A stretch of 64,000 nt of DNA, from the NCBI RefSeq assembly GCF_045037415.1, contig NZ_CP173438.1; one strand, given 5' to 3'. The DNA is from Escherichia coli. GTDB lineage: Bacteria; Pseudomonadota; Gammaproteobacteria; Enterobacterales; Enterobacteriaceae. This document shows, piece by piece, positions 10,878 through 64,000 of the stretch (position 1 is its first letter; each line of letters starts with the position of its first letter). The notes beneath the pieces are model-generated. The model was given only the letters and a program-made list of their open reading frames with translations. It ran no database searches and was not told where the DNA came from. The translations under genes were made by a program, and so were the position numbers.

Positions 10878-12788
10878 GTGACGGACGATTTTGCACAAGA
10901 CGGTCAGCTGGCGAAAGCGATACCAGGCTTTAAGCCGCGAGAACCACAGCGACAGATGGCGGTAGCCGTCACCCAGGCGATAGAAAAAGGCCAGCCGCTG
11001 GTGGTGGAAGCCGGAACCGGTACGGGCAAAACCTACGCTTACCTGGCCCCTGCGCTGCGGGCGAAAAAGAAAGTCATAATCTCGACCGGCTCAAAAGCGT
11101 TGCAGGATCAGCTCTACAGCCGCGATTTGCCAACGGTCTCAAAGGCATTGAAATACACGGGCAATGTGGCGCTGCTGAAAGGGCGCTCAAACTACCTCTG
11201 CCTCGAACGTCTCGAACAGCAGGCTTTGGCGGGGGGCGATCTGCCGGTACAAATCTTAAGCGATGTGATCCTGCTGCGCTCCTGGTCTAATCAAACAATC
11301 GATGGTGATATCAGCACCTGCGTCAGCGTGGCGGAAGATTCACAGGCGTGGCCGCTGGTCACCAGCACCAACGATAACTGCCTCGGCAGCGACTGCCCGA
11401 TGTATAAAGATTGCTTTGTGGTCAAAGCACGCAAAAAAGCGATGGACGCCGATGTGGTGGTGGTAAACCATCATCTCTTTCTGGCGGATATGGTGGTGAA
11501 AGAGAGCGGTTTTGGCGAACTGATCCCGGAGGCGGACGTCATGATCTTCGACGAAGCCCACCAGCTGCCCGACATTGCCAGCCAGTATTTTGGTCAGTCA
11601 CTCTCCAGTCGACAACTGCTCGACCTGGCAAAAGACATCACCATCGCCTACCGCACCGAATTAAAAGACACCCAGCAGTTACAAAAGTGCGCGGATCGTC
11701 TTGCCCAGAGTGCGCAGGATTTTCGCCTGCAACTCGGTGAGCCTGGTTATCGCGGTAACCTGCGTGAGCTGTTAGCTAATCCGCAAATTCAGCGGGCATT
11801 TTTACTGCTCGATGACACTCTGGAACTTTGTTATGACGTGGCGAAACTGTCGCTGGGGCGTTCCGCCTTGCTGGATGCGGCATTTGAGCGCGCCACGTTA
11901 TATCGCACACGGCTGAAACGGCTAAAAGAGATCAATCAGCCGGGCTACAGCTACTGGTACGAATGCACTTCGCGCCATTTTACTCTGGCTCTCACGCCGC
12001 TCAGCGTGGCGGATAAATTCAAAGAGTTAATGGCGCAAAAAACCGGTAGCTGGATCTTTACCTCAGCAACGCTGTCGGTGAACGACGATCTGCATCATTT
12101 CACCTCGCGGCTTGGCATTGAACAGGCAGAGTCATTGCTGTTACCCAGCCCCTTTGATTACAGCCGCCAGGCGTTACTCTGTGTGCCGCGCAACCTGCCG
12201 CAAACCAATCAACCGGGTTCCGCACGGCAACTGGCGGCAATGCTGCGACCGATCATCGAAGCTAACAACGGTCGTTGTTTTATGCTTTGTACCTCGCACG
12301 CCATGATGCGCGATCTGGCCGAGCAGTTCCGCGCTACCATGACGCTTCCCGTTTTGTTGCAGGGGGAAACCAGCAAAGGGCAACTGTTGCAGCAATTTGT
12401 CAGCGCCGGTAACGCGCTTCTTGTGGCAACCAGCAGTTTCTGGGAAGGGGTGGACGTGCGTGGCGATACATTGTCATTGGTGATTATCGACAAATTGCCG
12501 TTTACCTCGCCGGATGATCCACTATTAAAAGCACGCATGGAAGATTGCCGTTTGCGCGGTGGTGATCCGTTCGATGAAGTACAACTGCCGGATGCGGTCA
12601 TTACTCTCAAGCAGGGGGTAGGGCGATTGATTCGCGACGCCGACGATCGCGGCGTGCTGGTGATTTGCGACAATCGGCTGGTGATGCGCCCTTACGGCGC
12701 GACGTTTCTCGCCAGTCTGCCGCCAGCGCCGCGCACCCGTGACATTGCCCGTGCGGTTCGTTTCCTTGCGATACCATCCTCCAGGTAA
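10878..12788 (+). CDS. yoaA: DinG-family ATP-dependent DNA helicase
   Basis: 636-aa ORF, GTG start; Walker A GTGTGKT, DEAH box IFDEAHQL, Fe-S cysteine cluster CLGSDCPMYKDCF visible. Confidence 0.95.
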   Translation: MTDDFAQDGQLAKAIPGFKPREPQRQMAVAVTQAIEKGQPLVVEAGTGTGKTYAYLAPALRAKKKVIISTGSKALQDQLYSRDLPTVSKALKYTGNVALLKGRSNYLCLERLEQQALAGGDLPVQILSDVILLRSWSNQTIDGDISTCVSVAEDSQAWPLVTSTNDNCLGSDCPMYKDCFVVKARKKAMDADVVVVNHHLFLADMVVKESGFGELIPEADVMIFDEAHQLPDIASQYFGQSLSSRQLLDLAKDITIAYRTELKDTQQLQKCADRLAQSAQDFRLQLGEPGYRGNLRELLANPQIQRAFLLLDDTLELCYDVAKLSLGRSALLDAAFERATLYRTRLKRLKEINQPGYSYWYECTSRHFTLALTPLSVADKFKELMAQKTGSWIFTSATLSVNDDLHHFTSRLGIEQAESLLLPSPFDYSRQALLCVPRNLPQTNQPGSARQLAAMLRPIIEANNGRCFMLCTSHAMMRDLAEQFRATMTLPVLLQGETSKGQLLQQFVSAGNALLVATSSFWEGVDVRGDTLSLVIIDKLPFTSPDDPLLKARMEDCRLRGGDPFDEVQLPDAVITLKQGVGRLIRDADDRGVLVICDNRLVMRPYGATFLASLPPAPRTRDIARAVRFLAIPSSR

Positions 12789-51337: not shown

Positions 51338-52381
51338 ATGAGCGAGAACTCGATTCGTTTGACCCAATACAGCCACGGCGCTGGTTGCGGCTGTAAAATT
51401 TCCCCAAAAGTGTTGGAAACCATCCTGCACAGTGAGCAGGCGAAGTTTGTTGATCCGAATTTGCTTGTGGGTAATGAAACCCGCGACGATGCGGCGGTGT
51501 ACGATCTGGGCAATGGCACCAGCGTTATCAGTACCACCGACTTCTTTATGCCGATCGTTGATAATCCTTTCGATTTTGGCCGCATTGCGGCGACTAACGC
51601 CATCAGCGATATCTTTGCTATGGGCGGCAAACCGATTATGGCGATTGCGATCCTCGGCTGGCCGATTAACAAACTTTCCCCGGAAATTGCCCGCGAAGTG
51701 ACCGAAGGTGGACGCTATGCATGCCGTCAGGCGGGTATTGCGCTGGCTGGCGGTCACTCCATCGATGCGCCGGAGCCGATTTTTGGTCTGGCGGTAACGG
51801 GGATCGTACCGACCGAGCGGGTGAAGAAAAACAGTACCGCACAAGCCGGATGCAAACTGTTCCTGACGAAACCGCTGGGGATTGGCGTTCTTACCACGGC
51901 TGAGAAAAAATCACTGCTGAAACCAGAACATCAGGGACTGGCGACGGAAGTGATGTGCCGGATGAACATCGCAGGCGTGTCCTTTGCCAACATCGAAGGC
52001 GTAAAAGCGATGACCGACGTTACGGGTTTTGGTTTACTGGGGCATTTAAGCGAAATGTGTCAGGGCGCAGGTGTGCAGGCGCGCGTCGACTATGACGCGA
52101 TCCCGAAATTGCCGGGGGTTGAAGAGTACATTAAGTTGGGCGCAGTGCCTGGCGGCACCGAACGTAACTTTGCCAGCTACGGTCATCTGATGGGTGAAAT
52201 GCCGCGTGAAGTGCGCGATCTGCTGTGCGATCCGCAAACTTCTGGCGGTTTGCTGCTGGCGGTCATGCCGGAAGCAGAAAATGAGGTCAAAGCTACAGCC
52301 GCCGAGTTTGGCATTGAACTGACGGCGATTGGCGAACTGGTGCCAGCGCGCGGCGGTCGTGCCATGGTTGAGATCCGTTAA
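51338..52381 (+). CDS. selD: selenide, water dikinase (selenophosphate synthetase)
   Basis: ORF 51332-52381; product begins [30 protein letters not shown]... (Cys in GAGCGCK active-site loop). Confidence 0.95.
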
Positions 52382-55996: not shown

Positions 55997-56269
55997 GTGA
56001 GTCGAGCATTGATCGCCGTAGTATTAGCATTTCCATTAATTACACTGGCTAACCCGCATTATCATCCGGACGTGGAGGTAAACGTACCGCCAGAAGTGTT
56101 CAGTTCAGGCGGGCAGTCAGCGCAGCCCTGTACTCAGTGCTGCGTTTATCAGGATCAAAATTATTCTGAAGGGGCAGTAATTAAAGCCGAAGGAATACTG
56201 CTGCAATGCCAACGGGATGACAAAACCCTAAGCACTAATCCGCTGGTCTGGCGGCGCGTGAAGCCATAA
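55997..56269 (+). CDS. ynjH: DUF1496 family secreted protein
   Basis: 90-aa ORF, GTG start after AAGGAG; MSRALIAVVLAFPLITLANPHYHPDVEVNVPPEVFSSGG...; signal peptide. Confidence 0.88.
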   Translation: MSRALIAVVLAFPLITLANPHYHPDVEVNVPPEVFSSGGQSAQPCTQCCVYQDQNYSEGAVIKAEGILLQCQRDDKTLSTNPLVWRRVKP

Positions 56270-56642
56270 ACGCCTCTAATAATGGAATGTCAGCAGGGGC
56301 CAGCGGATATCGCAGCGCCTCTTCAGGTGAGCACCAGACCAGCGCCTGATGTTCATGTGCCTGTAACGTCCCGTGGAAGTCGGGTACGTGCCAGGCATGA
56401 AGATGGATAATCCGCCCCGAAACTTCTCGCTGATGGCTGGCAACATAGTCACCAACAGTTGCTTCGATGCCCAGTTCTTCGTTTAACTCACGCACCAGCG
56501 CCTGCCGCTGGCTTTCATCCGGCTCGATTTTACCACCGGCAAACTCCCATAATCCCGCCTGATCGCTCTGGGCAGGGCGTTGCGCGAGTAAAATTTTGCC
56601 ATCACGTTCGATGATGGCGGCAACAACTTCAATCATTTTCAT
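56235..56642 (-). CDS. nudG: Nudix CTP pyrophosphohydrolase
   Basis: 135-aa ORF MKMIEVVAAIIERDGKILLAQRPAQSDQAGLWEFAGGKIEPDESQRQALVRELNEELGIEA (Nudix box visible); 3' end overlaps ynjH by 35 bp. Confidence 0.94.
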   Translation of the reverse strand: MKMIEVVAAIIERDGKILLAQRPAQSDQAGLWEFAGGKIEPDESQRQALVRELNEELGIEATVGDYVASHQREVSGRIIHLHAWHVPDFHGTLQAHEHQALVWCSPEEALRYPLAPADIPLLEAFMASRAARPAD

Positions 56643-56722
56643 AAATTACACACGGGCAGATAAGCGAAAAATGCCATAATATCCGCACTGTTGCTCAATC
56701 AGAAAGGCTTTATATTTAAGGA

Positions 56723-57349
56723 GTGCCTGTGCTAGACCGCCATCTTCATCCCCGGATTAAACCGTTGTTGCATCAGTGCGTGCGGGTTCTTGATAAACCG
56801 GGCATTACGCCAGATGGTTTAACATTAGTGGGATTTGCCATCGGCGTGCTGGCACTGCCTTTTCTGGCGCTGGGCTGGTATCTGGCGGCACTAGTCGCCA
56901 TTTTGTTGAACAGGCTGCTTGATGGTCTGGACGGTGCGCTGGCGCGGCGCAGAGGGCTTACCGACGCGGGCGGCTTTCTCGATATTTCTCTCGATTTTCT
57001 TTTTTACGCGCTGGTGCCTTTTGGGTTTATCCTCGCCGCACCGGAGCAAAACGCCCTGGCAGGCGGCTGGCTGCTGTTTGCGTTTATCGGCACGGGCAGC
57101 AGTTTTCTCGCTTTTGCTGCGCTGGCGGCGAAACATCAGATTGATAATCCTGGTTATGCGCATAAATCGTTTTATTATCTGGGCGGCTTAACCGAAGGCA
57201 GCGAGACGATTTTGCTGTTTGTTCTGAGTTGCCTCTTTCCGGCCTGTTTTCCGTGGTTTGCGTGGGTATTTGGTGCGTTGTGCTGGATGACGACCTTTAC
57301 GCGGGTGTGGAGTGGGTATCTGACGCTGAAGTCGCTCCAGCGTCAGTAA
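56723..57349 (+). CDS. ynjF: CDP-alcohol phosphatidyltransferase-family membrane protein
   Basis: ORF from GTG 56723 (alternative GTG 56729 gives 206 aa); ...LDRHLHPRIKPLLHQCVRVLDKPGITPDGLTLVGFAIGVLALPF...; DG..AR motif (DGLDGALARRRG). Confidence 0.88.
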   Translation: MPVLDRHLHPRIKPLLHQCVRVLDKPGITPDGLTLVGFAIGVLALPFLALGWYLAALVAILLNRLLDGLDGALARRRGLTDAGGFLDISLDFLFYALVPFGFILAAPEQNALAGGWLLFAFIGTGSSFLAFAALAAKHQIDNPGYAHKSFYYLGGLTEGSETILLFVLSCLFPACFPWFAWVFGALCWMTTFTRVWSGYLTLKSLQRQ

Positions 57350-57357
57350 TTGCAATG

Positions 57358-58665
57358 TTATTTACTGCTGTCCGGGCCGCGTTCACCGGTTGCTACCGGA
57401 TTTTTTGGATCGCTGCTCCATTCGTACCAGCCACCGTCGTAAACGGAGACGTTATTCCAGCCCATTGCGCGTGCGTACATAAAGGTTTCTGACGCGCGCC
57501 AGCCAGTGCCGCAGTAGAATGAAACTTGCTGATCTGGTTTGATATTCCATGCTTTCCACATAGCGGTTATATCATCGGCGCTGCGCATGGTGCCATCCGG
57601 GTTATGGAAATCTTCCATATGCGTCGAGTCGCTACCTGCGTGTCCCCAACGTGCTCCGGCTATTTCACCTTTTGGTTTAATATAGCTGTAACCGCTGGTC
57701 GTACCGATAAATTCTGGCCACGAACGAATGCTCACCAGCGATGCATCCTGGCGATGCAGCAGTCCACGCGCTTGTTCCATATCAAGCATCAGTTGCGGTT
57801 GTGCCGGGATCTTCACGCCGAAATCCGGTTCCGCTTTCACTTTCGGTGGCGTACCGCGCTCAACGGGCAGACCCGCGTCGGACCAGGTTTGCCAGCCTCC
57901 GTCCAGCAGGCGCACATCTTTCACGCCGGCATAAAGCATAATTTGCGCCACACGCGCTGCAGCGTATACGTCACGCCCGTACAGAATGACCGTGGTGTCA
58001 TGGCGAATGCCGTGTTTTGCCAGCATCGCTTTCAGTTGTTCATCAGAAACTTTGTTCCACAGCGGTTCGCTTTCCACTTCGTTGGTGTCGATGTAGTCAG
58101 CGCCGGGAATATGGCTGATAAGGTAAAATTTTGGAGCGCCCCAGGCCGCTTCAATGACTTTCCAGTCACCGGCAGGTTTCGCCGTAACCTCTTTACCTTG
58201 TTGCAGGTCATGCAGCCACTGCGGATATACCAGCTGTTCAAAGTGCGGCAGTTTTTGCAGACGGGAAGGTTCGCTTAGCGCGTCACTCAGGATGGAGATA
58301 TGCGTAAAACCTGCTTTTTGCAGTCGCGTTTTGACGGCGTCGACATCTTTGTCATTACCGTACAGTGCCACCGGGGCATCGGCTTTCAGGTTATGTTGCT
58401 TGATCCACTCGTTGAGCTGTTCGGTGCTCATTTTGTCGAGCCAGCTAGCAGAGAGGTTTAAGGCGGCAGGTTCATGACCGGAAGGGCCATTTAAGGTTTG
58501 TGGCCAGCCGTTATAAAACGCGCTGGGGCGAGTATCTATCGCTTTGCCATTTTGTTGTTGAAGCTGGTCAAGTGTAAGAGGCTTCGCCAGTTCAGCGGCC
58601 CACGAAGAAGCGCAAGCCAGCCCTAAAGCCATTGCCAGCGCGGTCATTTGAGAAACACGTTTCAT
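57358..58665 (-). CDS. ynjE: periplasmic thiosulfate sulfurtransferase (multi-rhodanese)
   Basis: ORF 57358-58680; K-12-length product (435 aa) begins MKRVSQMTALAMALGLACASSWAAELAKPL...; CGTGWR rhodanese active-site loop. Confidence 0.92.
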   Translation of the reverse strand: MKRVSQMTALAMALGLACASSWAAELAKPLTLDQLQQQNGKAIDTRPSAFYNGWPQTLNGPSGHEPAALNLSASWLDKMSTEQLNEWIKQHNLKADAPVALYGNDKDVDAVKTRLQKAGFTHISILSDALSEPSRLQKLPHFEQLVYPQWLHDLQQGKEVTAKPAGDWKVIEAAWGAPKFYLISHIPGADYIDTNEVESEPLWNKVSDEQLKAMLAKHGIRHDTTVILYGRDVYAAARVAQIMLYAGVKDVRLLDGGWQTWSDAGLPVERGTPPKVKAEPDFGVKIPAQPQLMLDMEQARGLLHRQDASLVSIRSWPEFIGTTSGYSYIKPKGEIAGARWGHAGSDSTHMEDFHNPDGTMRSADDITAMWKAWNIKPDQQVSFYCGTGWRASETFMYARAMGWNNVSVYDGGWYEWSSDPKNPVATGERGPDSSK

Positions 58666-58731
58666 CGAAAATCCCGACATTGTAGTTTTGAGAGCGCCAT
58701 TCTGAACTGACGCATCGGGAAAAACTTTGCG

Positions 58732-59385
58732 TTATCGCAGTTTGTTGTAATTTTCTGACCACTGCGCCATATCCAGAACGGGGCTATCAGGAGGAACATC
58801 CTGAAGATCGTGCGTCACCTGCACAACAGGGATCGCCATGGCGCGAATTTCGCTGAACACCCAATGGCGAAAATTATCGCGCAGGGCCACATCAAGACGG
58901 CTGAATGGCTCATCCAGTAGCAACGCTTTTGGCTGAGCGAGAAGGGCGCGAAGCAGAGCAACGCGCGCTCGCTGACCGCCAGACAAAGTGGCAGGATCCT
59001 GATGGAACGCTCCGTCAAGGCCTGAACGCTCAAGTGCATCATTCACGGCATTACGTCGGGCATTCCCCTTAAGTGTCGCCGGTAGCGCCAGCAGTAAATT
59101 TTGCCCGACGCTGAACTGGTCAAATAACAGTGCATCCTGGAAAAGAATGCCAATCTGACGCTGTGCGGTGGGTAGCATGTCAATCCGTTGCTCATTAAGC
59201 CATAGCTCCCCTGTACAAGAAAACTGTCCGGCCAGCGCACCAATCATCCACGAAAACAGAGTGGATTTCCCGCAGCCGGATGGTCCCATTAACGTGACAA
59301 TGTCACCTTTATCTACTGTAAAGTTAACGTTTGTCAGCAAGCGGCTTTCTGGTAAACGTAGCGAAACATTTTTCACGCAGAGCAT
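58732..59385 (-). CDS. ynjD: ABC transporter ATP-binding protein
   Basis: ORF 58732-59472; K-12-length product (217 aa) begins MLCVKNVSLRLPESRLLTNVNFTVDKGDIVTLMGPSGCGKSTL...; Walker A GPSGCGKST, signature LSGGQRARV. Confidence 0.92.
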   Translation of the reverse strand: MLCVKNVSLRLPESRLLTNVNFTVDKGDIVTLMGPSGCGKSTLFSWMIGALAGQFSCTGELWLNEQRIDMLPTAQRQIGILFQDALLFDQFSVGQNLLLALPATLKGNARRNAVNDALERSGLDGAFHQDPATLSGGQRARVALLRALLAQPKALLLDEPFSRLDVALRDNFRHWVFSEIRAMAIPVVQVTHDLQDVPPDSPVLDMAQWSENYNKLR

Positions 59386-60920
59386 TAGCGGAGTCCTTGT
59401 CTGACATAACCTACCCATTTTACGACTAACGCGGTCAGGGCAAAAATAATAAGCGGTAACAGCAGTTGCCATAAAGCCTGGGCGGCGAGAATACCGTTGC
59501 TGCCGCCGCTGCTTAATGCCACCGCTTCAGTGGTGAGCGTCGGAAAACGCCCCGCGCCCAGCCACAGCGTCGGCATATACTGCGCAATACTGACTGAAAA
59601 TCCCACCGCGAAGGCAATCAGCGCAGGGCGCAACATGAGTGGGCATTTTACGTAAAAGAAGATTTTGGCCCGCGACCAGCCCAGTGTTTGCGCAATCAAA
59701 ATTAACCGTGAATCAATGCGCTGCCAGGCGGGTTGCAGGATAAACAGCATCCACGGCATTACCCACAGCAGATGCCCCCAGACCACCGCCGTCCAGCTTC
59801 CATCCAGGTTCAGCCATAGCGCCAGCGTGTACTGGCCCGCCACCAGCGGCAGAGCGGGTAATAAAATGGGCAACCATAGCCACAACTGGCGACGCTGTGG
59901 CCCCCATTCCAGCCACAGCAGTAACAAGAGCAAAGCGATGAATGCCGCCACCAGCCCCATTGTCAGGCTGTTGATGAGCGCTTGACTATTGATCGTCGAC
60001 TGATCCGCGAGGATCGCCAGCAGAACCACACACAGCACACCGGTTAAGGGTAAAAAACTCGCCAGCGTATTGCTTGGCAATAAAGGCGTGGCAGGCTTAC
60101 GAACGCCATCTACGCGGGGAATAGTACGCCGCCAGCCACGCCATAGCAGATAGCCCAGCAAAACGTAGGCGGCGAGTAACAGCATCAGCAGCAGGCTGGC
60201 GAGTGCGCCTTTCGTTTGTTGATCGGCGTCGCCCTGAGTTAACCACTGCCAGCTAATTACCGCCAGCGTCGGGGGATTACCTGGCCCAAGAATAATCGCC
60301 ACATCCACGACCGACAGCGACCAGGCGACAATCGCCAGCATCGCCATTGCTAACGCAGACGCGACGGAGGGCAACAGCAGCCAGTTCAGGCATTGCCAGC
60401 GGCTGTAGCCCAGCGAATCCAGCACAATGAGTTGCTGCAACAGCCGTTTTTCGCTCAATACTGCCGCTAAGATCCACAGCAGAAATGCGCTTTCTTTCAC
60501 CGCCAGGGTGAGGCCCAGCCCAATACCCAATTTGTCCATTGGCGGAGTGAAATACGGGAAATAGTCATAAAGCAGCCCTCCGTCAGCAAAGAGCAGAAGG
60601 GCGCTGGTGGCAAAAGCCACATGGGGAATGGCGAGCAGCCACGGCAGACGGGCGCACATACGCTGCCATTTCGGCCCTGGCCACAACGCCACAATCACCA
60701 GCAGGGCAATCAACAACGCCCCGACCGCCGCAATGGTTGTCGACACCAGCGTCGCCAGTAATGCCTGCGGTAACTGTGGATCGGCAAATAACGCCTGCCA
60801 GTGCGTCAACGACAAAGCAGGCGATATCAGCGTGAGAGCTGCCGGGATCAGCGGTGCATAAATCACCGCTATCATCGCCCACAGCAAAAAGATTAATGCG
60901 TACCGTAACGGTGTAGCCAT
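59385..60920 (-). CDS. ynjC: ABC transporter permease (fused double permease)
   Basis: ORF 59385-60944; K-12-length product (511 aa) begins MATPLRYALIFLLWAMIAVIYAPLIPAAL...; stop overlaps ynjD start (ATGA). Confidence 0.92.
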   Translation of the reverse strand: MATPLRYALIFLLWAMIAVIYAPLIPAALTLISPALSLTHWQALFADPQLPQALLATLVSTTIAAVGALLIALLVIVALWPGPKWQRMCARLPWLLAIPHVAFATSALLLFADGGLLYDYFPYFTPPMDKLGIGLGLTLAVKESAFLLWILAAVLSEKRLLQQLIVLDSLGYSRWQCLNWLLLPSVASALAMAMLAIVAWSLSVVDVAIILGPGNPPTLAVISWQWLTQGDADQQTKGALASLLLMLLLAAYVLLGYLLWRGWRRTIPRVDGVRKPATPLLPSNTLASFLPLTGVLCVVLLAILADQSTINSQALINSLTMGLVAAFIALLLLLLWLEWGPQRRQLWLWLPILLPALPLVAGQYTLALWLNLDGSWTAVVWGHLLWVMPWMLFILQPAWQRIDSRLILIAQTLGWSRAKIFFYVKCPLMLRPALIAFAVGFSVSIAQYMPTLWLGAGRFPTLTTEAVALSSGGSNGILAAQALWQLLLPLIIFALTALVVKWVGYVRQGLR

Positions 60921-62059
60921 TCTTGTTCCAGCGCATTTACCCAACCTGCGTGCGGTTCAGCCAGTACCGGCGGCAGATCCTGCGGCATTCTCGATTGCAA
61001 TGTTTCGCGCTGCCCGTCAGGCAGTTTTTGCGGGTCGAGAACAGAAGGATCGCCCCAGACAGCAGGATCTGCTTTACGCAGTTGCGCATCGGGTGAGAGC
61101 AGGAAATTGGCAACTACCTTCGCCGCAGCACTGGCATTCGCGTTGGCAGGAATGGTGACGAAATGGACGTTGCCAATCATCCCCTCGCGAAAACCAAAAC
61201 TGTAACTGCTTGCAGGCAAATCGCCGCTGGCGATTTTTTGCTGCGCATGCGCGGGGTTAAAGGTCAGCGACAGGCGCAATGTGTTAGCTTTCAGCAGAGC
61301 ATCCATCCGCGCGGGCGAAGGCGGGAAATCCTTTCCTTCGCGCCACAAATACGGATGCAGTGCATCAAGATATTGCCACAAGGGCGCAGTGACGCGGGCG
61401 AAAGTGGCATCGTCCGGCGCTTCTTTTAATGCTGTGGGATCTGGCGTTAGCATAATCAGCAACTGTTCAAGAAACGCCGTGCCGGTAAAGTCCGGTGGGC
61501 GCGGATAGGTAACCGTGCCGGGATTGGCTTTAGCAAACTCCAGTAAGGCTTGCGGCGTTTGTGGTGGCTGTAGCGTAACATCGCGGCGGGCGATAAACGT
61601 CAGTTGTGCGCCGCCCCAGGGCGATTCAGCCCCTTCTGTAGGCACTGAAAAATCTTCCCGCACCGGAAGCTGTGTGTCGACATAGCGCCAGTTGGGCAGA
61701 GTCTCCGCCCAGCCGGTTTGTAATAAATTGGCCTCTTTTAAGGTGCGGAAGTTTTCGCCGTTCACCCAGAGCAGATCCACCGAACCGCCCGTTTTACGTC
61801 CGGCAGCAACTTCGGTCTGAATGCGTTTCACCGCGTCTGCGGCATCCGCGAGACGAACAATCTTCAGGTTTATAGCGTAATGGGTTTTCATCTCGCCGCT
61901 AACCCAGTCGAGATAGCGGTTAATTGCGGTATCGCCGCCCCAGGCGTTAAACCAGACGGTTTGTCCTTTGGCCTCATTTTTTATTTCCTGCCAGTCACTG
62001 GCATGTGTTGCCAAAGAAAACAGCGATAACAATCCCAGCAACCACCCACAATGGCGCAT
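60893..62059 (-). CDS. ynjB: ABC transporter periplasmic substrate-binding protein
   Basis: 388-aa ORF MRHCGWLLGLLSLFSLATHASDWQEIKNEAKGQTVWFNAWGGDTAINR...; signal peptide; 3' end overlaps ynjC start by 28 bp. Confidence 0.93.
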   Translation of the reverse strand: MRHCGWLLGLLSLFSLATHASDWQEIKNEAKGQTVWFNAWGGDTAINRYLDWVSGEMKTHYAINLKIVRLADAADAVKRIQTEVAAGRKTGGSVDLLWVNGENFRTLKEANLLQTGWAETLPNWRYVDTQLPVREDFSVPTEGAESPWGGAQLTFIARRDVTLQPPQTPQALLEFAKANPGTVTYPRPPDFTGTAFLEQLLIMLTPDPTALKEAPDDATFARVTAPLWQYLDALHPYLWREGKDFPPSPARMDALLKANTLRLSLTFNPAHAQQKIASGDLPASSYSFGFREGMIGNVHFVTIPANANASAAAKVVANFLLSPDAQLRKADPAVWGDPSVLDPQKLPDGQRETLQSRMPQDLPPVLAEPHAGWVNALEQEWLHRYGTH

Positions 62060-62068
62060 CTTCTCTCC

Positions 62069-62617
62069 TTAAGAACGTTTTTCAGGAATACGGCACAGCC
62101 CCTGAGCGGGAATGTCCATGGCAGAATTAAAACGGGCTGACAGATTTTGCAGGCCTATCAATGCCGTCAGTTCGGTGAGCGCCTGAGCGTCAAAATGCGT
62201 AGCCAGTCGGGCGCGCAGAGCATCATCGACCGTTGGCGGCGTTACGCTTGCGGCTTCGGCGTACTCCAGCGCCAGCCGTTCTTCATCGCTAAAGAGCGGG
62301 CTTTGCCGCCAGTCAGCCACTGCCAGCAGTTTATCGGTGCTGCCGGTACGCTCGGCGACTTTCATACTGGTGATATCCACGCAAAACTCACACAGGCACA
62401 TTTGCGCAATGCGCGCGCTGACAAGCGATCGTACTACCGGATCGAGCGGTGAGCGTTTGCGCTCCAGCCAGCCGACAAACATCGACACCAGATAAAAGAT
62501 AAACGGGATCCGCCCCCACCAGCGAATCGGGCTTAGCACCTCGCCGTAATGGCGACGATGCAGCCACGCCTGCGGACGTAAAATGAAAGGAATTTTGCTA
62601 AGCGGCGGTAAACCCAT
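62069..62617 (-). CDS. ynjA: carboxymuconolactone decarboxylase (AhpD-like) family protein
   Basis: 182-aa ORF MGLPPLSKIPFILRPQAWLHRRHYGEVLSPIRWWGRIPFIFYLVSMF...; CxxC-type motif (CLCEFC). Confidence 0.92.
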   Translation of the reverse strand: MGLPPLSKIPFILRPQAWLHRRHYGEVLSPIRWWGRIPFIFYLVSMFVGWLERKRSPLDPVVRSLVSARIAQMCLCEFCVDITSMKVAERTGSTDKLLAVADWRQSPLFSDEERLALEYAEAASVTPPTVDDALRARLATHFDAQALTELTALIGLQNLSARFNSAMDIPAQGLCRIPEKRS

Positions 62618-63324
62618 CAGGCATTCCTCTTCTGGCGCTCAAGCCATATTTTCTTCGCCATAAAAATCACCACGGTCAGGGCAAACAGAATAAACAGTCC
62701 GGTGACAAACCAGAAAGTACCGCCTGTTAACATGCTGCCCGCCCAGGAATAAACAATAGTCGCCGGTAATTGACCAAGCCCGGTGGCGATAAAAAACGAG
62801 CGAAAACGTATTGAAGTCAAACCGGCAGCATAGCTGATTGGATCGAAAGGGACAAAAGGCAATAACCGACATACCAGGATGGTGTGTTTGCCGTAGCGAG
62901 TGAAAAAGCCGTCCATACTGTCAAGTACGGTTTTGCCGGTTAATTTTTCCACCACTTCGCGGCCCATCACTCTGGCGATAAAAAAGCACAGCGCCGCGCC
63001 GGCCATCGAACTGGTCCACGACAGTAAGCCGCCCCAGAACGCGCCAAACAGCGACGCATTGGCAAAGGTGATCAAAAACGCAGGTAGCGGTGCAGCAATG
63101 GCCTGTAAAATCATCAACAAGAACGAGACAACTGCCGCTAGTGCGCCGTAAGACTGAATAAAGCGTTCTATACCCTGTTGGTCCACGGCGGCAAACGCCG
63201 CAACGCTGCGATTGATAAACTCATGGACGCCGGGAAGCAGCGCCCATGCCAGCAGCACAGCGAACAACAGGATGATGAGGGTTATACGGTAGTACCAGAT
63301 TTTACGCGATTGCATCTTCATCAT
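62617..63324 (-). CDS. ydjZ: DedA/TVP38-family inner-membrane protein
   Basis: 235-aa ORF MMKMQSRKIWYYRITLIILLFAVLLAWALLPGVHEFINRSVAAFAAV...; stop overlaps ynjA start. Confidence 0.92.
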   Translation of the reverse strand: MMKMQSRKIWYYRITLIILLFAVLLAWALLPGVHEFINRSVAAFAAVDQQGIERFIQSYGALAAVVSFLLMILQAIAAPLPAFLITFANASLFGAFWGGLLSWTSSMAGAALCFFIARVMGREVVEKLTGKTVLDSMDGFFTRYGKHTILVCRLLPFVPFDPISYAAGLTSIRFRSFFIATGLGQLPATIVYSWAGSMLTGGTFWFVTGLFILFALTVVIFMAKKIWLERQKRNA

Positions 63325-63337
63325 CCTTTATCCTGCT

Positions 63338-63997
63338 TTATTCGGTGATTTTAAAGGTAACCGTTGCCAGCGTGTTATCCGCCGGGAGAACTGAGGCATT
63401 GCCTTTGAATTTCACTTCGCCGCGTTTTTCCACCGCACCATAAGTGTATGTTGCATTGCTGACGATGCCGACCGGGCAGCTATCCAGACACACCAGGCAA
63501 CCCGTTTTCTTCTCTTCTGCTGCCGTTAAATTACCGCCAAAGCGCATGTCCAGTTTCTTGCCATTACTGTCAACAATCACTTCATCGAAGGAATACGCTT
63601 TTGCCGCCCCTTGCCAGTTGACCGAAATATCCAGTTTGCTGCCTGTGACATGAGTCGTTTCTTTATTATCCATTGTCATGTTTTCGCCCGGCGTACCACC
63701 TGCCTCTTTCAGGGCTTCATAAAATGCTTTCGGGGTCGCATAACCCATAAACAGCGATTTATGTCCGTTGGAGCCATCTTTAAACACAATACCGTGACGA
63801 GTGTCGTCGGTGAGGAAACGACCATTAATTTGCACCAGCATGGTTACCGTATGGTTATTGGCATCGACACGCAGCGGTTGGCTGTTCGAAAGTCCGTCGT
63901 ATTCCACTTTTGCAGCCGCATTCTCTTTTTGATCGCAGCCGCTAAGCCCAGCAACAGCCAGTAAGCAGAGTGCAGCCAGTCCTTTTTTCCATGACAC
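63338..63997 (-). CDS. ydjY: putative lipoprotein YdjY (start may lie at or just beyond the window end)
   Basis: ORF MSWKKGLAALCLLAVAGLSGCDQKENAAAKVEYDGLSNSQ... with lipobox LSGC; first in-frame Met is 3 nt from the window edge, so N-terminal truncation cannot be excluded. Confidence 0.85.
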   Translation of the reverse strand: MSWKKGLAALCLLAVAGLSGCDQKENAAAKVEYDGLSNSQPLRVDANNHTVTMLVQINGRFLTDDTRHGIVFKDGSNGHKSLFMGYATPKAFYEALKEAGGTPGENMTMDNKETTHVTGSKLDISVNWQGAAKAYSFDEVIVDSNGKKLDMRFGGNLTAAEEKKTGCLVCLDSCPVGIVSNATYTYGAVEKRGEVKFKGNASVLPADNTLATVTFKITE

Positions 63998-64000
63998 TGA

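Follow-up and report, generated by a model that had tools for sequence, protein, structure and literature searches.

The anaerobically expressed ydjXYZ-ynjABCD/ynjE/ynjF genes of Escherichia coli as a possible selenium or sulfane-sulfur trafficking module

A stretch of 64,000 nucleotides of Escherichia coli DNA (RefSeq assembly GCF_045037415.1, contig NZ_CP173438.1; this whole stretch is called the window below) ends in a cluster of genes which still carry y-names: ydjY, ydjZ, ynjA, ynjB, ynjC, ynjD and ynjE on one strand, and ynjF on the other. Window positions 56000-64000 are 100% identical to E. coli strain 4/1-1 and represent E. coli chromosome, and the cluster is carried by 5423 of the 5426 complete E. 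coli genomes. Recent horizontal acquisition was considered from composition and rejected, the regional GC content of 0.47-0.57 being unremarkable. It was already known that the locus is annotated (RefSeq), that it is assigned to the regulator FNR and that it belongs to an uncharacterised iModulon. What is new here is comparative evidence, i.e. the pairing of YdjY with VTT-domain membrane proteins, gene fusions and clusters shared across phyla. All gene positions are those of the RefSeq annotation of strain 4/1-1 mapped onto the window, and the features are as follows.

56729..57349, plus strand: ynjF, CDP-alcohol phosphatidyltransferase family membrane protein, 206 amino acids, GTG start (RefSeq, Pfam)
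57358..58665, minus strand: ynjE, exported three-domain rhodanese, 435 amino acids (RefSeq, Pfam, PDB matches)
58679..58706, minus strand: candidate ynjE promoter, TTCAGA-16-TACAAT, in the 66-nucleotide ynjD-ynjE spacer (consensus scan)
58732..59385, minus strand: ynjD, ATP-binding cassette (ABC) ATPase without a C-terminal regulatory domain, 217 amino acids (RefSeq, Pfam)
59385..60920, minus strand: ynjC, fused double permease, 511 amino acids (RefSeq, Pfam)
60893..62059, minus strand: ynjB, exported substrate-binding protein, 388 amino acids (RefSeq, NCBIfam)
62069..62617, minus strand: ynjA, AhpD/CMD-family protein with a CEFC motif, 182 amino acids (RefSeq, Pfam)
62617..63324, minus strand: ydjZ, COG0398-type DedA/VTT membrane protein, 235 amino acids (RefSeq, Pfam)
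63338..64015 (window part 63338..64000), minus strand: ydjY, lipoprotein with the motif TGC-x2-C-x3-C-P (RefSeq, NCBIfam)
56235..56642, minus strand: nudG, Nudix CTP pyrophosphohydrolase, divergent from ynjF (RefSeq, Pfam NUDIX)

The true start of ydjY is at 64015, with the first five codons past the window end, and ydjX, the second DedA/VTT gene and the first gene of the operon, would fall at window coordinates 64020-64730, outside the window. The run from ydjY to ynjE lies entirely on the minus strand. An earlier note on this DNA, made from the sequence alone, had named these genes, and all of them are present with domain labels that agree with our Pfam and NCBIfam scans (lipoprotein, DedA, AhpD-like, ABC importer, rhodanese, phosphatidyltransferase). 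Some details of the layout had to be revised. The 28-nucleotide overlap of ynjB and ynjC described there is confirmed by the mapped coordinates and is kept in a Salmonella-labelled assembly and in Kluyvera, while the supposed ATGA junctions are in fact one-nucleotide overlaps, TGATG at ydjZ/ynjA and TAATG at ynjC/ynjD. The ynjF gene had been called divergent; it is convergent with ynjE (tail-to-tail, with 8 nucleotides between the stops) and divergent from nudG only, and the start assigned to it at 56723 is an in-frame GTG upstream of the RefSeq start at 56729.

Regulation of the cluster is anaerobic. Myers et al. 2013 reported two direct FNR-activated units, ydjXYZ-ynjABCD with a site at -60.5 and ynjE with a class II site at -41.5. 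When the consensus TTGAT-N4-ATCAA was used, an FNR-like box with one mismatch, TTGAGAAAAATCAA, was found upstream of ydjX, beyond the window end, and no box with up to three mismatches was found within 200 nucleotides upstream of ynjE in this one strain (window 58666-58873), though the literature lists the -41.5 site there. It had been anticipated in the earlier note that independent transcription of ynjE under unrelated regulation would separate it from the other genes; ynjE, which begins 66 nucleotides after ynjD, does have its own promoter, but the regulator is the same, FNR. Two further features of this spacer region can be mentioned. A perfect inverted repeat, TTGCG-TTAT-CGCAA, lies across the ynjD stop codon, and the ynjE frame has an in-frame ATG five codons before the annotated start (window 58666-58680; MSGFSMKRV...). 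The annotated start is the more plausible of the two because the upstream ATG overlaps the promoter-like -10 element.

According to Sastry et al. 2021, one uncharacterised iModulon consists of exactly ydjXYZ-ynjABCD, ynjE, yedEF and yjiLM; its activity is higher anaerobically and lower in fnr and arcA mutants, and the authors proposed that it has to do with how molybdenum and selenium are used. The yedEF genes in this set are described as a putative selenium transporter and carrier. In addition, ynjABCDEFI and sufCDS have a common genetic-interaction profile (Babu et al. 2014). Control by BaeR was set aside, as the induction of ynjABCD reported upon BaeR overproduction is merely 1.6-fold and probably indirect.

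YdjY has the lipobox LSGC and matches the NCBIfam model 'ydjY_domain' alone (NF040466 / PF27149; 146 bits against a cutoff of 50). Its cysteines C173, C176 and C180, which form the motif TGC-x2-C-x3-C-P, are invariant across 26 homologues together with some 30 further residues, and a signal peptide or lipobox is present in all members. The family is rare (395 representatives at E ≤ 0.001 among 1.84 billion proteins in a profile search), and the identity between E. coli YdjY and its counterparts in anaerobic Bacillota, Desulfobacterota, Campylobacterota and a spirochaete is 46-58%. In some sources YdjY is named a 4Fe-4S ferredoxin. We rejected this name: there are three conserved cysteines where four are needed (CxxCxxCxxxCP), the signal is a Sec-type lipoprotein signal with no twin-arginine motif, Pfam Fer4 is not matched, PDB sequence matches to iron-sulfur (Fe-S) proteins appear at E >= 0.3, and the fold has no ferredoxin match.

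Both membrane partners carry the VTT domain (Pfam, cutoff 33.9), with 93.1 bits for YdjX and 87 bits for YdjZ. YdjZ and the VTT gene product found beside YdjY in Bacillota and Campylobacter are 52-58% identical, and the VTT gene which adjoins YdjY is a true YdjZ orthologue. Cys113 of YdjZ is invariant in 60 of 60 orthologues and Cys152 is present in 57 of them, and YdjX has a cysteine at the position equivalent to Cys113; these conserved cysteines of the membrane domain might take part in a thiol relay. A study of DedA subfamilies assigns YdjX and YdjZ to COG0398 (the TVP38/TMEM64 branch), with YdjZ as its exemplar. In the literature this branch is the closest to the eukaryotic scramblases TMEM41B and VMP1 and its function is unassigned; it is devoid of the acidic residues that are linked to proton-motive-force-driven transport and of one or both of the basic residues for which binding of undecaprenyl phosphate (UndP) is proposed, and its members are fused most often to pyridine-nucleotide disulfide oxidoreductase domains of mercuric-reductase type. 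The UptA-type DedA flippases (COG0586) have the same VTT/DedA core domain; YdjX and YdjZ, however, reach only 27.5 and 36.5 bits where the UptA model requires 250, and fall in COG0398 instead.

For comparison of gene neighbourhoods 80 YdjY loci were taken from species-representative genomes, their open reading frames (ORFs) were clustered, and the loci were dereplicated to 33 groups at 75% YdjY identity; the counts given here are groups in which a family occurs within 10 kb of YdjY. The genome scan was pattern-based and would miss diverged YdjY, for example the 62%-identical Citrobacter protein P0032. A VTT/DedA gene accompanies YdjY in 28 of the 33 groups, a small four-helix membrane protein with a WLEMRV motif, absent from E. 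coli, in 22, and an Hdr-like 4Fe-4S/CCG protein in 15. They are followed by the TIGR04282/TIGR04283 transferases (10 groups), by the ArsS radical-SAM (seleno)protein, rhodanese and YedF (8 groups each), by SelD, YnjB/C and YnjF (6 groups each) and by an IU-nucleoside hydrolase (4 groups). The matches to ArsS, TIGR04282/TIGR04283, YedF, SelD and the nucleoside hydrolase are all above curated cutoffs.

Some of these partners are physically joined. Rhodanese-YdjY fusion lipoproteins have at least four representatives (P0272, P0277, P0270 and P0348), all exported and all with the three-cysteine motif, and Desulfobacterota have proteins in which Fe-S/CCG and VTT domains are joined. An apparent VTT-YdjY fusion, P0242, was discarded as a read-through artefact of E. 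coli ydjX-ydjY.

In individual loci the E. coli gene set is found again. Three Bacillota loci (L055, L060 and L066) have on one strand YdjY, the small membrane protein, VTT genes, the CCG protein, a YnjF-like gene, YnjB, two permeases and an ATPase. In a fourth, L098, the most telling one because the full set is present, one operon is made of VTT, a rhodanese-YdjY fusion, the small membrane protein, VTT, YedF (188.7 bits against a cutoff of 110) and the DUF3343 'Se_S_carrier', and a second, convergent operon of CCG, YnjF-like, YnjB, two permeases and an ATPase; its YnjB reaches 429.9 bits against the PRK11622 cutoff of 203, with 37% identity. In all four of these loci the YnjF-like gene is directly upstream of the YnjB orthologue. 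In Catonella a YnjE-like rhodanese of three domains occurs together with two VTT genes, Fe-S/CCG, a fused TIGR04282/3 gene, a kinase and YnjB/C/D, and Campylobacter has a tight run of YdjY, VTT, TIGR0428x, CCG, ArsS and a YnjE-like gene. Nearer to E. coli, the Salmonella-labelled assembly (L094) and Kluyvera (L095) have at the same xthA-gdhA site VTT-VTT-YnjBCD-YnjE, with ynjA overlapping and directly preceding ynjF in the same direction. The parts ydjXYZ-ynjABCD, ynjE and ynjF are thus probably linked in function, because orthologues of YdjY, YdjZ, YnjB/C/D, YnjE and YnjF are found together in operons of distant phyla and because YdjY is fused to rhodanese. The earlier proposal that transporter, rhodanese and phosphatidyltransferase make one module is in this way strengthened, as it also is by the common iModulon and the genetic-interaction profiles, and ydjX can be added to it.

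The small membrane protein has approximately 125-150 amino acids and the motif S(I/V)WL(E/Q)MR(V/I)(H/N)T (L073 3311-3688, L084 9505-9903, L098 9097-9483 and about 20 other loci). It is encoded beside YdjY, usually directly downstream, and matches neither Pfam nor NCBIfam models; Finegoldia and Catonella have it joined to the N-terminus of the VTT protein. No gene for it is present in the E. coli cluster.

Genes of selenium metabolism recur around these modules. DUF3343 was found in L098, L088, L093, L053 and L034, and several Desulfobacterota have YedF, DUF3343 and SelD beside YdjY modules without any ArsS. A Syntrophaceae contig has YdjY, the small membrane protein gene and then directly SelD. 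In Facklamia lactis (L084) the gene for selenocysteine tRNA (tRNA-Sec, 11659-11751) comes right after the YnjE-like rhodanese, and SelD, YedF and SelB come next (to ~16850). The same cluster encodes CcdA/DsbD-like and ResA-like proteins, which would keep exported thiols reduced, and in its upstream part there is a PrdB/GrdB-like ORF that stops at the expected position of a selenocysteine codon. The presence of SelD within 10 kb in 6 of 33 groups corresponds to a naive binomial value of ~9e-8, a figure which overstates independence because the SelD/YedF groups come from few lineages.

We hold it to be quite possible, though short of probable, that the cluster is the form taken in enterobacteria by a widespread module of anaerobes for thiol-based trafficking of selenium or sulfane sulfur at the cytoplasmic membrane. 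Selenium is the best single candidate because YedF, DUF3343, SelD and tRNA-Sec are neighbours and yedEF is co-expressed; sulfane sulfur is the chemically equivalent alternative. As for the path that we infer, periplasmic YnjE would take zero-valent sulfur, S(0), or selenium, Se(0), as a persulfide or perselenide on Cys385 and would exchange it with the three invariant cysteines of YdjY, and YdjX and YdjZ would give passage through the membrane. A cytoplasmic disulfide-type reductase would then set the element free or hand it to carriers such as YedF, from which it would reach SelD; this reductase would be the AhpD-like CxxC protein YnjA in enterics and the Hdr-like Fe-S/CCG protein in other phyla. 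YnjBCD and YnjF form a tightly linked sub-module which may import, and possibly anchor to lipid, an organic co-substrate. Gene content, FNR-dependent anaerobic expression, co-expression with yedEF, synteny across phyla and domain fusions are established in all this, and the element, the direction in which it flows and what YnjBCD and YnjF do are inferred. The earlier note had suggested a system for sulfur or small-solute uptake and detoxification. Its sulfur-type chemistry is upheld by the rhodanese, the YdjY cysteines and the thiol/disulfide partners, and nothing points to detoxification; generic small-solute uptake is also disfavoured, as FNR/anaerobic control and the YedF, DUF3343, SelD and tRNA-Sec neighbours favour selenium or sulfane-sulfur trafficking.

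The known system that comes closest is YedE/YedF (and the YeeE/YeeD, TsuA-TsuB type). It is co-expressed with the cluster in E. coli, YedF recurs with DUF3343 and SelD beside YdjY/VTT, and both systems are thiol-based and predicted to carry Se or S(0). They differ in that there is no sequence relationship between them and that the membrane part of the cluster is DedA/VTT and not of YedE/YeeE type; moreover, the cluster has in addition an exported lipoprotein, a rhodanese, an ABC importer and a CDP-alcohol transferase. A more remote resemblance, of logic only, may be drawn to the mer relay (MerP to MerT to MerA), with its exported cysteine protein, small membrane protein and cytoplasmic reductase of the disulfide family. 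COG0398 DedA proteins are most often fused to domains of mercuric-reductase type, and the VTT protein of YdjY loci to Fe-S/CCG. The cluster is, however, not homologous to MerP, MerT or MerA, and gives no hint of mercury.

YnjE, the presumed entry point of the relay, has three rhodanese stretches (Pfam), the signal peptide MKRVSQMTALAMALGLACASSWA and the active-site loop C385-GTGWR (CX4R). It is near-identical to PDB entries 3IPO and 2WLR, and its next-best solved relatives are the sulfurtransferases 6KTV/6H98 (460 residues; E 1e-88), which we take to be EanB, the polysulfide-dependent anaerobic ergothioneine synthase of Chlorobium limicola. In a HMMER alignment with 6KTV/6KVW the Cys of FYCGTGWR and the Tyr of SGY(S/N)YIK align, and these two are presumably the catalytic pair of EanB. 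The likeness also covers the three-domain rhodanese architecture. YnjE differs from EanB in its signal peptide and periplasmic location, EanB being cytoplasmic, and no methyltransferase gene, such as that for the EanA/EgtD histidine methyltransferase with which EanB is paired, was found in the 20-kb neighbourhood. According to the literature YnjE resides in the periplasm and works poorly with thiosulfate and 3-mercaptopyruvate, its physiological substrate has been called unclear, and cellular sulfane sulfur changes little when ynjE is deleted. One paper on ergothioneine counts YnjE among EanB-like enzymes of unknown function which may attach sulfur to heterocycles.

These properties bear on the possibility, which we regard as rather unlikely, that the cluster serves sulfane sulfur only, i.e. 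anaerobic uptake of periplasmic S(0) derived from polysulfide or thiosulfate for molybdenum cofactor, Fe-S clusters or thiolation. YnjE is after all a rhodanese with a solved, persulfide-capable active site, whose nearest solved relative beyond E. coli takes its sulfur from polysulfide. It was described as a molybdopterin-related sulfurtransferase (Myers 2013, Sastry 2021) and has been proposed as sulfur donor in molybdopterin synthesis, ynjABCDEFI share their interaction profile with sufCDS, and YedE-like proteins have been described as zero-valent sulfur transporters. YnjE is exported, however, and molybdopterin synthesis is cytoplasmic; the poor activity with thiosulfate and 3-mercaptopyruvate and the near-unaltered sulfane sulfur of the deletion strain do not fit either. 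The recurrent neighbours are, finally, the selenium-specific SelD, tRNA-Sec and SelB and not genes of sulfur assimilation.

The commonest enzymatic neighbours of YdjY, ArsS and TIGR04282/TIGR04283, suggest yet another element, because in NCBI they are named for arsenosugar biosynthesis; arsenic or another organo-metalloid is thereby indicated. The cluster could then be the membrane and transport arm of an organo-metalloid pathway of arsenosugar or arsenolipid type, which we consider improbable. In such a pathway ArsS, the nucleoside hydrolase, an MtnK-like kinase and TIGR04282/TIGR04283 would, in other bacteria, make a 5-substituted ribosyl compound, which YnjF would link to a lipid, to be flipped by the VTT proteins; in E. 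coli, where the biosynthetic enzymes are absent, the compound would have to be imported via YnjBCD. Three cysteines, the number invariant in YdjY, are the classical As(III) ligand set. Furthermore, TIGR04282/3, ArsS and the IU-nucleoside hydrolase are present in 10, 8 and 4 of the 33 groups, above curated cutoffs as mentioned, an APH/choline-kinase-family gene occurs in Catonella clusters, the Campylobacter ArsS/TIGR0428x genes are interleaved with YdjY and VTT on one strand, and YnjF-like genes lie between the VTT and YnjB genes. Against all this stands the lack of ArsS, TIGR04282 and TIGR04283 in E. coli and its relatives, and the fact that the YdjY loci showed neither arsM nor any other ars gene. 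The arsenosugar name reportedly goes back to one cyanobacterial study, and the ArsS family itself is often a selenoprotein. In L098, L088 and L093 YdjY/VTT are paired with YedF, DUF3343 and SelD and there is no ArsS.

The remaining genes encode what is predicted to be a type I binding-protein-dependent ABC importer, with YnjF beside it. YnjB matches SBP_bac_8 (47.1 bits, cutoff 27) and its own NCBIfam subfamily PRK11622 (556.8 bits, cutoff 203) and has the N-terminal signal MRHCGWLLGLLSLFSLATHAS; YnjC shows BPD_transp_1 in the C-terminal half (30.7 bits, cutoff 26.4), its Bacillota orthologues being two separate genes of ~290 and ~270 amino acids; YnjD matches ABC_tran with 103.5 bits and has both Walker A (GPSGCGKS) and the LSGGQ signature. 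Close homologues of YnjB found by search were limited to Enterobacteriaceae, and the distant orthologues, with 29-38% identity, were therefore drawn from the Bacillota YdjY loci. No ligand could be assigned to YnjB: a sequence search of PDB gave no match, a profile search gave weak matches only, to PotD, 2-aminoethylphosphonate (2-AEP) and FbpA proteins, and Foldseek with the YnjB model (predicted local distance difference test, pLDDT, of 86) gave cluster-D binding proteins for polyamine, 2-AEP, ferric ion, thiamine and AfuA/sugar phosphate at 12-18% identity, which discriminated no ligand. A cationic ligand is loosely suggested because the invariant residues, among them W40, W98, E102, D136, F137, E145, D190, F191, Y230 and W239, are rich in aromatic and acidic types (Trp, Phe, Tyr, Asp and Glu). 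The importers ThiBPQ, PhnSTUV, PotABCD and AfuABC have binding proteins of the same fold class and fused or paired permeases, that of YnjC being fused; the best NCBIfam likenesses of YnjC and YnjD are PhnU2, PhnT2, ThiQ and PotA, with no equivalog cutoff reached.

KEGG and JGI speak of a 'putative thiamine transport system', in which case YnjBCD would import thiamine or another vitamin and the flanking genes would be unrelated. JGI applies this label to the substrate-binding protein in some YnjB homologues, YnjD resembles ThiQ with 130.8 bits, and the thiamine-binding protein 2QRY is among the fold matches of YnjB. Nevertheless, we find this highly improbable. The two ThiQ equivalog cutoffs are far from reached (130.8 against 245 and 130.1 against 298 bits), the PhnT2, sulfate and PotA models score YnjD equally or higher, YnjB matches no ThiB model, and 2QRY, with 14-15% identity to YnjB, is no better a match than PotD, FbpA and PhnS. 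No thiamine pyrophosphate or other riboswitch was found in the E. coli locus (L001) and 13 related loci (Rfam, gathering thresholds), where the RNA matches were tRNAs, 5S, 6S, tRNA-Sec and one Clostridiales-1 RNA. Independence of YnjBCD from the flanking genes is also disfavoured, because its synteny with VTT, YdjY, YnjF and rhodanese is kept across phyla. The Clostridiales-1 RNA (RF01699; 49.5 bits against a gathering threshold of 48) lies in Catonella morbi (L042, 10571-10678, plus strand), between the YdjY gene and the gene for the fusion of small membrane protein and VTT, and it could be a cis-regulatory element of the YdjY module.

YnjF matches Pfam CDP-OH_P_transf (42.4 bits, cutoff 22) and contains DGALARRRGLTDAGGFLDISLD, the signature D-G-x2-A-R-x7,8-G-x3-D-x3-D which in a polytopic membrane protein defines CDP-alcohol phosphatidyltransferases. 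It reaches no specific equivalog, with 60.8 bits against 180 for archaetidylinositol-phosphate synthase. YnjA matches Pfam CMD (37 bits, cutoff 23) through an AhpD-like domain with CEFC as its CxxC motif, and its best NCBIfam likeness is 'YciW-related (seleno)protein' (2.7e-29; 102 bits, below the cutoff of 310).

A lipid-centred explanation starts from YnjBCD and YnjF. In a Kennedy-like salvage of head groups an amino-alcohol or polyol would enter through YnjBCD and be joined to phospholipid by YnjF; scrambling of the resulting lipid would fall to YdjX and YdjZ, and the rhodanese, YdjY and YnjA would be modifiers or unrelated passengers. The full transferase signature of YnjF, which is most like (archaetidyl)inositol-phosphate synthases, is in accordance with this, and so is the constant position of YnjF next to YnjB in non-enteric loci. 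COG0398 DedA proteins resemble eukaryotic phospholipid scramblases and are without the residues proposed for UndP flipping, the invariant aromatic and acidic residues of YnjB are as in amine-binding proteins, and some clusters have kinase and nucleotidyltransferase-like genes. Yet the E. coli cluster has no kinase or cytidylyltransferase gene, and the YdjY-VTT pairing, the rhodanese-YdjY and CCG-VTT fusions and the YedF/DUF3343/SelD neighbours would all be left unexplained, so we judge such a salvage route distinctly improbable.

Several observations also weigh against selenium or sulfane-sulfur trafficking, the reading that we prefer. The selenium link of these genes consists of genomic linkage and co-expression, and no selenocysteine was found in place of a YdjY cysteine in 95 instances of the motif. 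To our knowledge, the classical screens for formate-dehydrogenase-deficient E. coli yielded selA-D and not genes of this cluster. The adjacency of SelD, YedF and SelB in Facklamia could simply reflect a selenoprotein gene within the cluster, the PrdB-like ORF. It is hard to see what a CDP-alcohol phosphatidyltransferase and a binding-protein importer would do in a simple Se/S relay. YdjY is absent from the Salmonella-labelled and Kluyvera loci even though the module is kept there, and its presence is either a gain in Escherichia or its absence a loss in the relatives. The limited number of lineages behind the SelD count and the prominence of ArsS and TIGR04282/TIGR04283, both discussed above, belong here too.

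On the side of ynjF the limits of the module are less clear. The divergent ynjF/nudG pair is retained in the Salmonella-labelled and Kluyvera loci and was not found in non-enteric YdjY loci, and membership of nudG in the module is uncertain. The nudG gene and ynjH (55997-56269, plus strand) share a 35-nucleotide overlap of their 3' ends at window positions 56235-56269, and a 2025 survey lists the nudG-ynjH and ynjE-ynjF pairs among its 'excludon' candidates, i.e. overlapping transcripts. Farther on, at window positions 51338-52381, selD itself lies in a ydjA-selD-topB unit, approximately 5 kb beyond ynjF and 11 kb from ydjY. Its nearness to ydjY in E. coli may be a coincidence, though it echoes the SelD adjacency seen in other phyla.

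Three open questions meet at this locus: how trace selenium is specifically acquired, what the COG0398 DedA proteins do, and which substrate the exported EanB-like YnjE has. With respect to the first, no transporter of high affinity for selenium is known according to a 2022 review. It is conceivable, though on balance unlikely, that YdjY, the COG0398 DedA proteins, the exported rhodanese, YnjBCD and YnjF are the envelope arm of an unrecognised selenium-utilisation system, possibly the missing high-affinity acquisition route, which in many anaerobes would feed an ArsS-type pathway leading to an organoselenium sugar or lipid and not to an arsenosugar. If this is true, bacterial COG0398 DedA proteins and the YdjY fold would thereby receive their first biochemical function. 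Through the synteny across phyla and the fusions of rhodanese with YdjY, what was a list of y-genes yields a concrete hypothesis, open to genetic tests in E. coli. Should the selenium model be wrong, the cluster would still mark an undescribed conserved module of anaerobes which is tied to ArsS-type radical-SAM chemistry.

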